Notes: generated by a model not told the origin, from the sequence alone. A stretch of 64,000 nucleotides of DNA from an uncultured Bacteriovoracaceae bacterium (GCA_966211875.1 CBIHNP010000009.1:29233-93232), one strand, 5' to 3'; positions 38,791 through 56,273 are shown, counted from the stretch's first letter. Numbers and translations: made by a program.

Positions 38791-38837
38791 AATGGTCTTC
38801 TAGAGGAATTGAACCTCATTTTGATAACCGTAGATTC
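38791..38837. repeat. degenerate tRNA-Arg 3'-half-like remnant (candidate outer att site)
   Basis: aatggtcttctagaggaattgaacctcattttgataaccgtagattc versus the tRNA region aatggcgcactcgagaggattcgaacctctgacctaccgcttaga. The T-arm 17-mer matches at 14 of 17 positions. Confidence 0.5.
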
Positions 38838-38860
38838 GAAAAAATATATGAGGTTAAAAA

Positions 38861-39280
38861 ATGATTAATCGAGAGCATTCATCTTCTTTGGTTTTAATGC
38901 TTAGTGGATTAGCACTATTAACTTATTTCGTGGCAGACTTTAAAAAGAAAACTAGGGTTGGAAACTATGAGAAGAAGAGCAAAAAATCAATTGAGAAAAA
39001 ATTTCGATTTTCGCATGTAACATTTTATAATTGGAGTTCAAACGGTGGGAAGCTTGGTCTGTCAGTCAATTTAGGAATGTATGGGATTTTAAACTCAACT
39101 CGTACATTGAAAATCACTACAATTGAAAGCTTAAGTAATTTATTTGATACTGTAGAAGTTGATGAGCTACCAGATAGAAAATTTTATACTTTAAAAAAGT
39201 CTAAAATAAATTTTGGTTCAATTGAAATGGAAAATTTACTAAAAGAATTTGATTGTATTATGGTCAAAGAAGACGAATAG
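38861..39280 (+). CDS. hypothetical membrane-anchored protein
   Basis: 139 aa with a GAGG SD and one N-terminal TM (SSLVLMLSGLALLTYFVA). Confidence 0.5.
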   Translation: MINREHSSSLVLMLSGLALLTYFVADFKKKTRVGNYEKKSKKSIEKKFRFSHVTFYNWSSNGGKLGLSVNLGMYGILNSTRTLKITTIESLSNLFDTVEVDELPDRKFYTLKKSKINFGSIEMENLLKEFDCIMVKEDE

Positions 39281-39712
39281 AATGATCTGTTTCACCTAGT
39301 TTAACTGTTGAATGCTACTGAACTCCAAATTGATCCATCACTATTCCCAAATAGCCTCCTCAAGGTTGCATAGACAAAGGTACTTATGAGTCCTCCTTAT
39401 GGACTTTCAAAAAGCTCTCGTGCAAAGACAATGTCCTGCAGTTCAATTAAGAGAGCCCCACCCTTCTTTAGCTGTAAAAAGAATTGATATCGATATCATT
39501 GTTGTCTTGATAAATTTCAGGTTGATTTGCCGGAACAGAGGAAGGAAATTCTTCTTTGGCGATAAATTTAAATCTAATCATTTGGTTCTCGTTTGAATCG
39601 CCAATTTGTAAATAAAAGCTCAGCAGAATTTTTCTACGTGGTGTTTTGTAAAAAAAATGTAGTGGCTTTTAATCGAGAGGGCGAACTTCTGATCTACCTC
39701 TCAGAGGCGCCC

Positions 39713-39747
39713 AATGGCGATCCTTGCGAACATTTTCAGTAGAGATG
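39713..39747. repeat. weaker tRNA-3'-half/att-like remnant
   Basis: aatggcgatccttgcgaacattttcagtagagatg shares aatggcg with the tRNA end. It shares ttg.gaac / cattttNa / gtaga blocks with the 38791 remnant. The alignment is gapped. Confidence 0.3.
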
Positions 39748-52993: not shown

Positions 52994-54472
52994 ATGTCAC
53001 CAAGCTTATTACAAACAGCAATGCTATATATGGACTTACGTAAATTACTCAGTGAAGTTGGAAATAACAAAATGTTATATCACAAGAAATCATTTTGGAT
53101 TTACAAGAACCGCAAATGGATAAAGCATTACTCCTCTGACATATTCAATGACATCATCTCACTAGCTAAAGCTGATCCTACGTTTTTAACCGATACAAGT
53201 GAATACAAGGTAAAGAATATAGTTAAAAACCTTCAAGCTATATGCTCAGTAGACAATTTAGAGTTCGGTACATTTATTGGTGTTGAAAAATCAGCTAATG
53301 ATAACTTTATTCCATTGCAAAATGGAATATTGAGAATCAGAAGAATGCAGAATAAGATTGAATATGTGTTATTGCCTCATACACATGAGTTTTTCTCTCC
53401 GTACATATTACCTTATGAATATAATCCAGATGCAAAAGGAAAAATCTTTCTAGATTTATTGTCTGAAATCCTTGAGCCAGATCAGGTGAAATTACTTAGA
53501 CAGTGGTTTGGCTACTGCTTAATACCTGTAACTCTCGCAGAGAAATTTTTTATTGCCCATGGTGGGGGGTCCAACGGAAAATCAGTCATTCTTATTTTGC
53601 TTGCACTTCTTGTTGGTGAAGAAAATGTATCACGTGTTCTTTTGCAAGGATTTGTTGCAGATTCAGACTTCACTGCCGCTGACACCGTTAATAAGTTAAT
53701 CAACATCGTTCACGAAGTTGATGAAATGGATGCTATCCCTACTGGTTTCTTAAAAGAATTTGTTTCAGGTGAACAAATGCGCTGTAATGAAAAGTTTAAG
53801 CCAGCATATCTATTCAAGCCAACTGCAAGATTGATGTTTTCAACAAACAAAATCCCAATGTTTAAAGATAATTCATACGGATTTTTAAAACGACTTATTA
53901 TTTTAGAATTTCCTAAACAATTCGTTGGTGCCCAAAAAGATACTAGATTTAAGAGAGCTGATTTCTGGATTAGTTCTGGCGAACTACCTGCAATTTTCAA
54001 CTGGGCACTAGAAGGTTTAAATGAATTGATTATGAATGATTGGGAATTTGATATTCCTGAAAGTGTAAATAAGGCCATTGAGAGTTTTAAAGAATCTGTT
54101 GAACCAGCGTTGGAATTCCTAAAGGATAATATTGAAGCTTCTCCCGGAAGCGAAATGACAGCTAATGAACTATACAAGAGCTACAAAAGTTACTGTGCTA
54201 TGTATGGATATAACAAAGCAACAGCAAGAGAATTCTCCAAAACAGTTAGAAAAGCATTTCCTCAAGCAGTTCGTACTGAAAATGCTCATGTCCGTCGTGG
54301 TGTAAGATCGCGTTTGTGGTTAAATATTAGATTCATTCAAAACAATCCTTCAGAGTCTCAAGCTTTAACACCTCAGACACCTGAAACACAGACTATTTCT
54401 TCTGAATTAATTAACACACACTCAGAAATTCAATCAGAGGAGGTTTTGCGTGCAAGCATTAAAGCCTCATAA
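52994..54472 (+). CDS. phage/plasmid primase, P4-family C-terminal (D5-type NTPase) protein
   Basis: Walker A context FIAHGGGSNGKSVILILLALLVGEEN and overall TIGR01613-like layout. Confidence 0.8.
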   Translation: MSPSLLQTAMLYMDLRKLLSEVGNNKMLYHKKSFWIYKNRKWIKHYSSDIFNDIISLAKADPTFLTDTSEYKVKNIVKNLQAICSVDNLEFGTFIGVEKSANDNFIPLQNGILRIRRMQNKIEYVLLPHTHEFFSPYILPYEYNPDAKGKIFLDLLSEILEPDQVKLLRQWFGYCLIPVTLAEKFFIAHGGGSNGKSVILILLALLVGEENVSRVLLQGFVADSDFTAADTVNKLINIVHEVDEMDAIPTGFLKEFVSGEQMRCNEKFKPAYLFKPTARLMFSTNKIPMFKDNSYGFLKRLIILEFPKQFVGAQKDTRFKRADFWISSGELPAIFNWALEGLNELIMNDWEFDIPESVNKAIESFKESVEPALEFLKDNIEASPGSEMTANELYKSYKSYCAMYGYNKATAREFSKTVRKAFPQAVRTENAHVRRGVRSRLWLNIRFIQNNPSESQALTPQTPETQTISSELINTHSEIQSEEVLRASIKAS

Positions 54473-54638
54473 TAAAAAGCTTGTTGAAATTAAATTATCT
54501 GAGGATGAATTAAAATCTTTAGTAGAGCTTTTCTACTGGTTAAAAACTATTCGCGATAATAACACCCAAGTAGATACTCTCGAACCAAATTATTTCTTGA
54601 ATTATACCGATAATGAGATAGAAAGATTGGTGGGGTAA
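54450..54638 (+). CDS. 62-aa hypothetical protein
   Basis: GTG start with a strong GGAGG SD 7 nt upstream. Overlaps the primase end and ends 4 nt before the recombinase. Confidence 0.45.
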   Translation: MQALKPHNKKLVEIKLSEDELKSLVELFYWLKTIRDNNTQVDTLEPNYFLNYTDNEIERLVG

Positions 54639-54642
54639 TTTT

Positions 54643-56226
54643 ATGAATCCAAATATTTTGTATAACAATAAAGATGCAACAGTAATTATTAGAATTTCAA
54701 GTGGGAGGCAAGCTGATGGCTTGTCTCCTGATGTACAACGAGATGAAATACAGTCTTACTGTAAAAAACTTGGTCTTAATCCAGTTAAAGAGTTTTGCAT
54801 TATTGAGAGTGCTAAGGATTCAAAGAATAGAGTTAAGTATAACGATGCCCTTCGCTACACAGAAAAGAATAAAATTGGAAATATTATCTTCTACATGATG
54901 GATAGAGAAGCGCGAAACTTTACTGACCTTGAAGCTAATGAAGCTAAAGTTATGAAAGGAGTTTTTAATATCCACTACGCTAAGGAAAATTACATTTTAC
55001 ATCGTGATACCTCCGACTCTGATCTACTAACAAGAAGCTTTTCTGGGATAATGAATAAGCAGTACTCCAAAATCCTAAGTACTAAAGTTAATGATGGTAT
55101 GACTAAGAAAGCTGAGGGGGGTTGGTATCCAAGTAATAACCCTCCACTTGGTTATGTCTGTCAAAAAGCAACTGATACCGATAGTGGGAGAATAAAAAAC
55201 AGAGGTGGAACCATTGTTCTTGATCCTAATGAACTTAATAGAAAAATTGTCTCTCGTGAATTTGAACTCAGAGCTAATGGTTTATCATTTGAGAAAATCA
55301 GAGAACAAGTTATTTCAGATGGATTAATCAGTGGTAATGCCATAAAAAAATACAGAGCATGTTCGATTCAGCGTAGATTGCAAAATCCATTTTATCGAGG
55401 TCAGTTTACTTGGAAAGATACTTTGTACGATGGAAAACATGAAATCTTTATTCCTAAGCATATTCTTATAAAGGTTGATGAGTCTTTTGGATTAAGAGCT
55501 AGTGCTGTTAGAAGAGACAAGAATGAGTATACTGCTTTGACTGGTGGGTGGTTAAAGTGCGCGTGTGGCTGTCATATTGTTTATGATCCAAAGAAAAAGA
55601 TTAATCGTAAGACACAAGAGTCCCGAACCTATCACTACTATCATTGCACTAATGGTAAAAGGGTGCATGATTCGCTTTCAGGCATGAATGTTACTAACGA
55701 TCAAATTTGGATTCAACTTGGTACAGCGGTGAATGACATTCACATTTCGGAACAACTTGCTAAGGACATTTCAGAAGCTCTTAATCAGGTTGAGTCCAAG
55801 GCTCATGTTACTACGAAGAAACAAATTGAGCTTCTCCAAGTGGAAGAAGCTCTCTTTCAAACTCGTGAAGATCGACTTATTACAATGCGTATGGATGGTG
55901 AACTTGATAAGCATATTTTCGATGTACAGTTAAAGCGTATTAGAAATGATAGACAGTCTGTTATTGAGCAAATTGAAGTTCTGCAATTGAGTTTAACATC
56001 AGCAGTTGTTGAAACAGTTCAATCTGTTCTCGAACTCGCTAAGAATGCACAATCATTCTGGAATTCTCAATCCGTTAGTGAGAGGAAGAAAGTCTTAGAC
56101 ATGATTCTCTCGAACCCAGTACTTAATGGTCTAAATGTCGAATATAAATTAAAAAGACCTTTTGAGTTGTTGAAAGAAATGAAGGGAAATACAGAATGGC
56201 GCACTCGAGAGGATTCGAACCTCTGA
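54643..56226 (+). CDS. large serine recombinase (integrase)
   Basis: Catalytic VIIRISSGRQ, a recombinase domain, zinc-ribbon LKCACGCH...YYHCTNG and a C-terminal coiled coil. The last 30 nt overlap tRNA-Arg. Confidence 0.9.
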   Translation: MNPNILYNNKDATVIIRISSGRQADGLSPDVQRDEIQSYCKKLGLNPVKEFCIIESAKDSKNRVKYNDALRYTEKNKIGNIIFYMMDREARNFTDLEANEAKVMKGVFNIHYAKENYILHRDTSDSDLLTRSFSGIMNKQYSKILSTKVNDGMTKKAEGGWYPSNNPPLGYVCQKATDTDSGRIKNRGGTIVLDPNELNRKIVSREFELRANGLSFEKIREQVISDGLISGNAIKKYRACSIQRRLQNPFYRGQFTWKDTLYDGKHEIFIPKHILIKVDESFGLRASAVRRDKNEYTALTGGWLKCACGCHIVYDPKKKINRKTQESRTYHYYHCTNGKRVHDSLSGMNVTNDQIWIQLGTAVNDIHISEQLAKDISEALNQVESKAHVTTKKQIELLQVEEALFQTREDRLITMRMDGELDKHIFDVQLKRIRNDRQSVIEQIEVLQLSLTSAVVETVQSVLELAKNAQSFWNSQSVSERKKVLDMILSNPVLNGLNVEYKLKRPFELLKEMKGNTEWRTREDSNL

Positions 56227-56273
56227 CCTACCGCTTAGAAGGCGGTTGCTCTATCCAGCTGAGCTACGAGTGC
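56197..56273 (-). tRNA. tRNA-Arg (anticodon UCU), CCA encoded
   Basis: Hand-folded cloverleaf: acceptor GCACTCG/CGAGTGC, D stem GCTC/GAGC, anticodon stem ACCGC/GCGGT with loop CTTCTAA, T arm AGAGG-TTCGAAT-CCTCT, discriminator G, CCA. Confidence 0.95.

Follow-up and report, generated by a model that had tools for sequence, protein, structure and literature searches.

What occupies the AT-rich sequence beside the tRNA-Arg(UCU) gene of an uncultured Bacteriovoracaceae bacterium, and how did it settle there? The question is raised by positions 38791-56273 of a stretch of 64,000 nucleotides (GCA_966211875.1 CBIHNP010000009.1:29233-93232; hereafter the window) of a Bacteriovorax/Bacteriovoracaceae chromosome, the chromosome of predatory bacteria. 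Islands anchored at tRNA genes are, as such, ordinary. The tract at 38.8-56.2 kb, about 17.4 kb long, is very likely a composite genomic island, resulting from successive site-specific insertions at the 3' end of the tRNA-Arg(UCU) gene. Its right-hand part, unit C (11.35 kb, at about 44857-56203), represents an intact integrative element which carries cargo, and is probably self-replicating; two smaller units, A and B, lie to its left. The novelty lies in the system formed by a large serine recombinase (LSR) and the tRNA gene, with mapped attachment (att) sites, a 5-bp rule applied to the T-arm, an in-frame overlap of integrase and tRNA, and a slot for defence-type cargo.

A foreign block beside a conserved tRNA gene

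The only tRNA gene called in the window is an intact tRNA-Arg(TCT) on the minus strand (56197-56273; ARAGORN; Rfam 72.5 bits), the integration target, kept at the same place beside an FAD-oxidase gene in 17 relatives. On the opposite side, a plus-strand terminator (38735-38764; 13-pair stem followed by TTTTTTT, both strands being scored) closes the last host-like gene (M48-like, 37820-38707), and marks the left edge of the island. The GC content is 0.339 in 38791-56196, versus 0.391 in 1-30490 and 0.399 in 56197-64000 (Mann-Whitney p=2.7e-11, 500-nt windows), and amounts to 0.324, 0.317 and 0.351 in units A, B and C, respectively. In tetranucleotide composition the island is about four times further from the core (L1 distance 0.287) than core chunks of equal length (maximum 0.067). 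A preliminary description of the locus had reported an AT-rich block comprised between a strong terminator and an intact tRNA-Arg gene; block, terminator and anchoring tRNA are all borne out, and its four spot GC counts (16, 14, 27 and 30 of 60) are exactly reproduced. The GC step which it placed at 38.8 and 56.2 kb is real, but by GC alone the left edge is blurred, and the best two-breakpoint segmentation is 36801-55500, because a low-GC gene sits just outside the island. This ORF (open reading frame; 36967-37650, 227 aa, GC 0.31-0.33, without family match), which pulls the segmentation to 36801, has a homolog 48-50% identical near the same tRNA in the relative L021 (L numbers denote comparison loci), and the left border was therefore kept at the terminator.

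Relatives of the gene lying right of the tRNA occur in 21 Bacteriovoracaceae contigs, at 47-87% identity (61-87% for most). As far as they reach, these contigs are collinear with the right flank (FAD-oxidase, RsgA, PilZ and beyond), RsgA and PilZ being kept in 16 of the 21. Sequence to the left of the tRNA is available, together with the tRNA context, in 16 relatives, and none carries any gene of the 38.8-56.2 kb tract, or an integrase beside tRNA-Arg. Genes found there encode ThiI, an epimerase, GNAT, HlyD, NnrS, a beta-lactamase-fold protein and similar products. The possibility, raised in the preliminary description, that relatives hold the same genes at the same place does not hold, since 16 of 16 lack the island genes. 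Compositionally distinct, and absent from relatives which keep its flanks, the block behaves as a tDNA island, the comparison being with related genomes rather than with an empty site of the same species.

The last conserved gene of the left flank (SLT-domain, 29795-30490) lies 25.7 kb from the tRNA in the window versus 2.5-6 kb in L005, L014 and L021, so that the non-syntenic block (about 30.5-56.2 kb) is larger than the AT-rich one. Its left 8.3 kb (30491-38790) are host-like in composition, and include genes for a flavin reductase, a nitronate monooxygenase, a second SLT protein (34230-34997), a hydrolase, a RibD_C and an M48-like protein. This segment could belong to the same hotspot, as an older portion which has since ameliorated, or derive from a rearrangement. 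The same tRNA hosts a different member of the unit C family in L031; in L016 the same LSR tail is found at a contig end, and the tRNA is preceded by the end of an integrase gene, as in the window.

Assemblies are very often interrupted at this tRNA-Arg or no more than a few kb away (L024, L025, L003, L007, L008, L012, L015 and L016). Variability of the site among strains could fit, and the conserved tRNA sequence could equally be the cause. L024 and L025, contigs of the same genome which both end inside the tRNA, had been regarded as a hint of population heterogeneity, and were dropped as uninformative, since metagenome assemblies break at conserved tRNA sequence anyway.

An integrase gene ending inside the tRNA gene

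Large serine recombinases are thought to avoid tRNA genes, the 3' ends of which are seen as a niche of tyrosine integrases. A 2026 survey of border-mapped proviruses found that the preference for RNA targets still lies with tyrosine integrases (PMC13626063). The protein encoded next to the tRNA in unit C is, as the preliminary description had it, an LSR (54643-56226, plus strand, 527 aa). It features an N-terminal resolvase, i.e. catalytic, domain (PF00239, E=3.4e-11), in which R17, S19, D87, R88 and R91 are invariant in 35 sequences, and a Recombinase domain (PF07508); the residues C306, C308, C335 and H342 of a zinc cluster are invariant in the same 35 sequences, and PF13408 is recorded for some homologs. 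Homologs number 173 at E<1e-10, and named sources are Bdellovibrionota metagenome-assembled genomes (MAGs). Identity to phage LSRs is about 23%, and no PDB entry was hit by sequence.

The last 30 nt of the LSR gene are the antisense of the tRNA 3' end, so that CCA gives TGG (Trp519), and the T-loop Asp-Ser-Asn. The arrangement is not peculiar to the window. In 24 of 24 family loci with a callable tRNA (among L027-L067) the LSR ORF runs in frame into the antisense tRNA, a result having a chance probability of (1/3)^23. These loci encompass six amino-acid specificities and ten anticodons (Arg-TCT, Arg-TCG, Arg-ACG, Val-GAC, Glu-TTC, Leu-TAA, Leu-GAG, Leu-CAG, Ser-GCT and Asn-GTT). Most of them translate the T-loop as Asp/Glu-Ser-Asn, and W519 is invariant in the 35-sequence alignment. 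Because the ORF reads into the antisense tRNA, attP overlaps the 3' end of the integrase gene itself. The LSR is predicted to measure 527 aa in the integrated and 541 aa in the excised state, with tails reading '...EWRTREDSNL' and '...EWRTHVVEFRTSC...', respectively. In the literature covered, which is incomplete, so that an earlier description is possible, neither tRNA-targeting LSRs nor these elements in Bacteriovorax, Bdellovibrio or other Bdellovibrionota were found described.

Attachment sites and predicted point of exchange

Downstream of the tRNA 3' end, leftward on the plus strand, relatives have the native sequence ...ttaaaaTGGCGCACCCG. The tRNA of the window is preceded by the end of the integrase gene, not by this native context, which (ttaaaaTGGCGCACCC) is reproduced at 44844-44859, where the sequence reads ...cttaaaaTGGCGCACCC. 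At 44850-44886, an interval including the tRNA-like string called R3 (44850-44882), host-type '...TTAAAA' leads into the tRNA 3' end TGGCGCAC (B arm and core), after which comes the P' arm CCACGTAGTGGAGTTTCGAACTTCTTGTA. At 56170-56226 the P arm, formed by the coding sequence at the 3' end of the LSR gene, precedes the core AATGGCGCAC, which is followed by the B' arm, which corresponds to acceptor and T-arm of the tRNA, and carries TTCGAAC at tRNA positions 18-24. These two intervals are taken as attL and attR, respectively, because the native context reappears at the former, and its P' motif recurs at attL sites of sister elements.

In L032, at a tRNA-Glu gene, the first 13 nt of the tRNA recur 9.8 kb away, and are followed by TATTGGAGTTTCGAACCGCTTGTAC; in the window the core is followed by CCACGTAGTGGAGTTTCGAACTTCTTGTATGC, and the two attL sites have in common the P' motif GTAnTGGAGTTTCGAACnnCTTGTA. 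The motif, with 21 specified bases, occurs once per sequence, at attL, against a chance expectation of about 3e-8. In L039, at a tRNA-Arg(ACG) gene, a 10-nt core followed by ACTTGGAGGACTTTCGAACC, with a related P' motif, provides a third attL 6.1 kb away. In L033, at a tRNA-Leu gene, an exact 25-nt repeat of the tRNA end is found 9.5 kb away. The preliminary description had noticed a tRNA-like remnant at about 44.85 kb; its similarity to the tRNA is not significant by itself, but the site is validated as attL by the sister elements. The right-hand unit had been viewed as a small integrative element with cargo, and the definition of attL and attR supports this view. The island thus shows an intact tRNA at one end, and displaced 3' copies in the same orientation (attL, and the remnant R2 described below) towards the other.

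The core shared by attL and attR, AATGGCGCAC, is about 10 bp long, and the element so delimited about 11.35 kb. Core position 9 is C in attL and T in attR, which puts the crossover to the left of this position. The T-arm heptamer (TTCGAAC/GTCGAAC) starts at tRNA position 18 in B' and 23 in P', and the shift of +5 bp is observed in 3 of 3 elements (window, L032 and L039). In the LI integrase the motif contacted by the zinc-ribbon domain is 5 bp nearer the crossover in attB (half-site bp 11-19) than in attP (16-24) (Rutherford et al. 2013, PMC3783163). If this geometry is applied to the positions of the B' and P' motifs, the crossover would fall inside the tRNA, 6-8 nt from its 3' end, a place which belongs to the identity core in each of the three elements. 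The predicted attP reads …GGGAAATACAGAATGGCGCAC|CCACGTAGTGGAGTTTCGAACTTCTTGTATGC…, with GGGAAATACAGAATGGCGCACCCACGTAGTGGAGTTTCGAAC as junction, and the predicted attB …GAGCTTAAAATGGCGCAC|TCGAGAGGATTCGAACCTCTGACC…, with GAGCTTAAAATGGCGCACTCGAGAGGATTCGAACC as the restored site.

The 6.1-kb LSR element of L039 at tRNA-Arg(ACG) (L039 3838-3913 and 5413-11549) is located 1.5 kb from a tRNA-Asn gene and beside a tRNA-Ser gene, the tRNA cluster serving as a landing pad.

Backbone and cargo of unit C

A nine-gene backbone, found by tblastn, is common to unit C and to the elements L027, L028, L031 and L032, which have LSRs at least 55% identical. It consists of an 83-aa protein, two lipoproteins of 150 and 216 aa, an HTH_3 regulator, a resolvase, a 443-aa protein, a helicase, a 62-aa ORF and the LSR. 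As all these genes are full length, unit C has no obvious pseudogenes; more distant LSRs accompany other modules. The earlier remark that almost every gene other than the mobility genes is an orphan does not apply to these nine.

The replication protein (52994-54472, plus strand) combines D5_N, DUF5906 (a superfamily 3, SF3, helicase) and Pox_D5 winged-helix domains (PF08706, PF19263 and PF03288), and is of the P4 alpha C-terminal type, matching TIGR01613, 'P4-family primase, C-terminal', at 156.9 bits versus a cut-off of 108.7. Of the P4/D5-type primase indicated in the preliminary description the D5_N and SF3 helicase part is present, but no primase catalytic domain was detected with Pfam, NCBIfam or PHROGs, and the protein aligns to full-length primases only from about position 227 or 348 onward, PHROGs matches being limited to the helicase C-terminal two thirds of primases. 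The 62-aa ORF (54450-54638, plus strand) overlaps the stop of the helicase gene, and terminates 4 nt short of the LSR start. It is conserved in place and sequence in L028 (57%), L029 and L032, and all close sisters have an ORF of 53-63 aa at this position; the 62-aa ORF is a candidate recombination directionality factor. The small serine recombinase already noticed is confirmed as a full-length protein with resolvase and HTH_7 domains (50322-50909, minus strand, E=3.8e-45), 58-76% identical in L027, L028, L031 and L032. Near it lies the HTH_3 (Cro/CI-type) regulator (49798-50103, minus strand, E=8e-12), with homologs in L027, L031 and L032.

The conserved 443-aa protein (51023-52354, minus strand) has no recognised fold, and its family is rare, 1.84 billion proteins including only 34 cluster representatives of it. 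Sequence profiles gave no Pfam, NCBIfam or PDB match. The AlphaFold2 model rose in confidence (pLDDT) from 60.7, with 4 sequences, to 75.8, with 23, and a Foldseek comparison with PDB and BFVD returned nothing at E<1e-3. Tyrosines Y67 and Y187 are invariant in the family, and no HUH-type motif is conserved. In L077 (1-21302) a homolog is located directly upstream of a gene for a single-stranded DNA-binding protein (SSB), about 2 kb from resolvase and HTH genes, and adjoins a cluster of MmeI-type restriction-modification, McrBC, radical-SAM and Dcm genes. Since no LSR is found there within 10 kb, the 443-aa protein is not confined to LSR elements. A role in replication or recombination is a guess. 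The divergent intergenic region 52355-52993, which holds a 71-aa ORF (52665-52880), and where sister elements have an SSB gene, is a candidate origin and promoter region; a search for iterons at 52.3-53.05 kb revealed only short, unconvincing repeats.

The other backbone genes are all on the minus strand, and have homologs in L027, L031 and L032. They encode the 83-aa protein (47591-47842) and the lipoproteins of 150 aa (48662-49114) and 216 aa (49124-49774), both having lipobox signal peptides, the latter 51-77% identical in three sister elements. The lipoproteins may serve exclusion or surface functions. On the same strand, two proteins each with two transmembrane (TM) helices are specific to the window, one of 123 aa (47857-48228), the other of the SHOCT family (48218-48625).

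Beside attL lies a window-specific cargo slot (44938-47081, minus strand), absent from the sister elements, which encodes a 242-aa protein with five TM helices (44938-45666), a soluble 395-aa ORFan (45638-46825), the gene of which overlaps the former, and a 66-aa ORF (46881-47081). None of the slot proteins has a Pfam, PADLOC, PHROGs or NCBIfam match, and for the 395-aa protein no homolog but itself was retrieved among 5.8 billion clusters. Of the closest elements (LSR at least 55% identical), three sit at tRNA-Arg(TCT or TCG), Val or Glu genes, and have Gabija or a type II restriction gene instead. L029, at tRNA-Val (also L030), hosts a complete Gabija system (GajA E=7.7e-208, GajB E=2.1e-175), along with a PDC-S31 candidate and a Dcm methylase, all of them (L029 1-8000) taking the place of the block of 443-aa, resolvase and HTH genes. 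L027 hosts a BamHI-type (type II) restriction enzyme and a methylase. Cargo is assigned to L027 and L029 by adjacency only, because their attL sites were not found.

Probable older insertions in units A and B

The boundary between units A and B is marked by R2, a decayed partial tRNA-Arg(TCT) on the minus strand (39663-39709), which spans tRNA 3' positions 1-48, begins with TGGC at 39663, and keeps AGA, the anticodon complement. Its portion 39673-39709 is the best non-self tRNA match of the whole window (32 of 38 positions identical, 2 gaps, tRNA orientation), and the score of 37 versus a maximum of 31 in 40 shuffled windows makes the remnant announced at about 39.7 kb significant. R2 is the scar of an older insertion. 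Being a long collinear tRNA fragment, and not a P'-type site, it may have been left by an element whose att identity was long, as is typical of tyrosine integrases. A third string, R1 (TGGTCTTCTAGAGGAATTGAACCTC; 38793-38817, minus strand), is weakly similar to the tRNA-Arg 3' end (16 of 19 positions identical to tRNA positions 9-27), is preceded by TGG and an A-rich context, and lies directly after the terminator, exactly at the GC step. It is suggestive only, and possibly the outermost, oldest att scar. The remnants share the tRNA orientation, and the idea that the island is subdivided by sequences derived from one tRNA is supported.

Unit A (0.85 kb; genes at 38861-39596, plus strand) contains two ORFans, of 139 aa with one TM helix (38861-39280) and of 65 aa (39399-39596), neither having family hits. 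Unit B (5.1 kb; 39778-44788, mixed strands) contains no integrase. A gene on the minus strand (39778-40485) encodes a secreted protein of 235 aa; those on the plus strand encode a secreted ORFan of 1019 aa, the tail of which is Pro-rich (40628-43687), a 243-aa protein with five TM helices (43690-44421), and a DUF805 membrane protein (44414-44788). Both units would be decayed leftovers which have lost their integrases, and now encode only secreted or membrane ORFans.

Among ten genes scanned with Pfam at 83-17317 no mobility gene was found; they include housekeeping genes (for Rho, RF-1, and PrmC-like, EPSP-synthase-fold, ABC-F and sigma-54 activator proteins), and 3 of the 10 lack a Pfam match. 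A further isolated low-GC kilobase (0.317) occurs among these housekeeping genes at 8001-9000, where an ORF of 343 aa (8175-9206) has no Pfam match.

Points against, and alternative explanations

Several observations weigh against successive insertions, and against unit C as a functional element. At the att sites only B' and P' share a recognisable motif; no clear mirror motif could be spotted by inspection in the left half-sites (B, P), and relatives do not conserve the native B arm. The attL sites of L027, L029 and L031 were not located by tRNA similarity, 8-mer core or P' motif, these elements probably extending beyond the 10-kb flank searched. No excised circle, same-strain empty attB or attP junction was retrieved. 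By tRNA similarity alone R1 and R3 are within chance; in an anchored edit-distance scan with the 28-mer of the tRNA 3' end, both (edit distance 8) are indistinct from about 20 chance hits, and Rfam, at a permissive threshold, gave no tRNA-like hit for the remnants at 38.5-45.5 kb. A tblastn search of 30-45 kb with 157 LSR and 443-aa family proteins detected no integrase pseudogene in units A and B, weak hits clustered at 44.76-44.89 kb being only the translated tRNA-like string; as integrase fragments are absent, the origin of the two units by insertion rests on R2, composition and position. Autonomous replication is uncertain because the primase domain was not found, and this copy has no SSB. 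Finally, PADLOC recognised nothing in the cargo of the window.

What kind of element is unit C? The absence of capsid, tail, terminase and conjugation genes claimed in the preliminary description is confirmed. Families for these functions, as well as relaxases, type IV coupling proteins (T4CPs) and type IV secretion systems (T4SSs), were sought in 38.8-56.2 kb with Pfam, PHROGs and NCBIfam, and none was found. Since the genes which define satellites, integrative conjugative or mobilizable elements (ICEs, IMEs) and prophages were sought and not found, unit C is not shown to be any of them; it works like a tycheposon or a satellite-type element.

The notion that unit C is a true phage satellite, resembling PICIs (phage-inducible chromosomal islands), P4 or the PLE of Vibrio cholerae, is unlikely. 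Unit C would in that case stay dormant at the tRNA until induced by a helper phage of Bacteriovorax, and would then be replicated by its helicase, packaged into capsids of the helper, and interfere with it. Its 11.35 kb, and the association of an integrase with a Cro/CI-type regulator and a helicase module of the P4-family primase C-terminal type, are what such elements display; PLE satellites use an LSR, and sister elements carry anti-phage systems. The lack of own capsid and conjugation genes fits too, and the ORFans could hide functions for the redirection of capsids. On the other hand, no packaging-hijack gene was detected with Pfam, PHROGs and NCBIfam (terS, capsid-size redirection, capsid or portal homologs, Sid/Psu/Cpm-like or AlpA families), and 2.9 million viral contigs of IMG/VR contain no relatives of the LSR, the helicase, the predicted attP junction or the P' motif. 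We know of no helper phage.

It is rather improbable that unit C is an IME, excised by the LSR, and transferred by a co-resident conjugative system through an unrecognised oriT or relaxase, of which the 443-aa protein would be a possible candidate. An integrase, a resolvase and a replication gene without structural genes are a common IME layout; the 443-aa family has invariant tyrosines (Y67 and Y187) in a fold which could not be placed, and the backbone lipoproteins recall entry-exclusion proteins. Yet no ORF of 38.8-56.2 kb matches a relaxase, T4CP or T4SS family in Pfam or NCBIfam, the 443-aa family conserves no HUH-type motif, and the window hosts no conjugative element.

It is most improbable that the block is a non-mobile, fast-evolving, AT-rich hypervariable region, in which tRNA-like strings arose by chance. 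To the left of the tRNA synteny is indeed lost in nearly all relatives, including those without an integrase, and R1 and R3 are not significant by similarity alone. Against this, all 24 family members have an intact LSR adjoining the tRNA in the same frame, the P' motif is kept at attL in elements residing at different tRNAs, R2 beats all shuffles, and the backbone is present at other tRNAs in other genomes, which already contradicts this explanation for unit C. A decayed prophage deprived of its structural genes, which might account for the LSR, the Cro/CI-type repressor, the phage-type replication genes and the PHROGs hits for integrase, primase and SHOCT proteins, is scarcely credible, since no capsid, terminase, tail or lysis module was found with Pfam or PHROGs, all backbone genes are full length, and structural genes are also missing from the sister elements in which both ends could be mapped (6.1-9.8 kb), so that the small size is the native state and not the outcome of decay.

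Relationship to known elements

The closest resemblance is to the tycheposons of Prochlorococcus, of which 910 of 937 have tyrosine integrases, and 27 an LSR (Hackl et al., bioRxiv 10.1101/2020.12.28.424599). Tycheposons are likewise 10-20-kb elements inserted at tRNAs, with the full tRNA proximal and partial tRNAs distal; they form tandem arrays, leave degenerate remnants which build up islands, carry exchangeable cargo, and encode an integrase, a primase/helicase, a small serine recombinase and a regulator, without capsid or conjugation genes. They are, however, cyanobacterial, and rely mostly on tyrosine integrases, whereas an LSR is encoded here, in Bdellovibrionota; the 443-aa backbone protein and the in-frame overlap of integrase and tRNA, both found here, are not described in the tycheposon paper. 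The comparison with tycheposons covered architecture.

As in islands formed by tyrosine integrases at tRNA genes, the element regenerates the tRNA, a displaced tRNA fragment marks the far end, and the integrase adjoins the tRNA. Those islands, though, have long identity blocks, whereas unit C combines an LSR with a core of about 10 bp, and its attL carries a shifted T-arm mimic in place of a true tRNA fragment. LSRs of the Listeria A118/LI type share with that of unit C the N-terminal resolvase domain, the Recombinase domain, the zinc ribbon and a predicted coiled coil, as well as, on the B' and P' arms, a 7-9-bp motif in attP and attB, 5 bp closer to the centre in attB (PMC3783163). They differ in targeting a protein-coding gene, while the target here is a tRNA 3' end, and attP lies over the stop region of the integrase's own gene, so that the C-terminal tail is predicted to differ between integrated and excised states. 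P4 (alpha primase-helicase, tRNA-Leu), PICIs and PLE are similarly small, associate an integrase, a repressor and a P4 alpha C-terminal replication protein (TIGR01613), and bear defence-related cargo, which is found here in sister elements. Unit C, by contrast, has no detected packaging or capsid-remodelling genes, lacks the primase domain, and is absent from viral contigs.

A model for the island and its significance

The following model starts from what was observed, namely the foreign composition of the island, its absence from relatives and its gene content, the att sites, the overlap in frame, and the shift by 5 bp; catalysis, excision, replication, the roles of the small ORF, the resolvase and the 443-aa protein, the function of the cargo and the route of transfer from cell to cell enter it as putative steps. 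The LSR would recombine attP, which straddles the 3' end of its own gene, with the tRNA 3' end. The crossover would take place inside the shared 10-bp core AATGGCGCAC, most likely 6-8 nt within the tRNA, and, falling inside the shared core, would restore the tRNA exactly. The T-arm TTCGAAC of the tRNA would be the motif bound by the zinc-ribbon domain in the B' half-site, and its mimic, 5 bp further out, would do the same in P'. Once excised, the circle may be replicated by the D5/P4-type SF3 helicase, possibly with the help of the 443-aa protein and, in sister elements, of SSB. Resolution of multimers would be the task of the resolvase, with the HTH_3 protein as repressor and the 62-aa ORF as directionality factor. 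The slot on the attL side would host exchangeable cargo, represented here by the pair of a soluble 395-aa and a 242-aa membrane ORFan.

A wider reading may be advanced, tentatively. A clade of LSRs (at least 173 clusters, mostly from Bdellovibrionota where named) would have specialised on tRNA 3' ends by using the T-arm TTCGAAC as the zinc-ribbon motif, and by placing attP in the integrase gene. The switch of the C-terminal tail would work as a sensor of the integration state, and aid directionality; the elements would be the counterpart, in predatory bacteria, of tycheposons and satellites, shuttling defence genes, and the 395-aa and 242-aa pair would be a new defence system. This combined scenario is possible, but doubtful as a whole.

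An LSR clade found at many tRNA genes, with mapped att sites, makes the logic of target specificity directly testable, and since tRNA T-arms occur in every genome, LSRs targeting tRNAs could serve genome engineering. As the cargo slot hosts known defence systems in sister elements, the ORFans found in it here are candidates for new functions. The family of unit C represents a group of small replicative integrative elements in the predatory Bdellovibrionota, a phylum whose mobilome and phage defence have barely been described.

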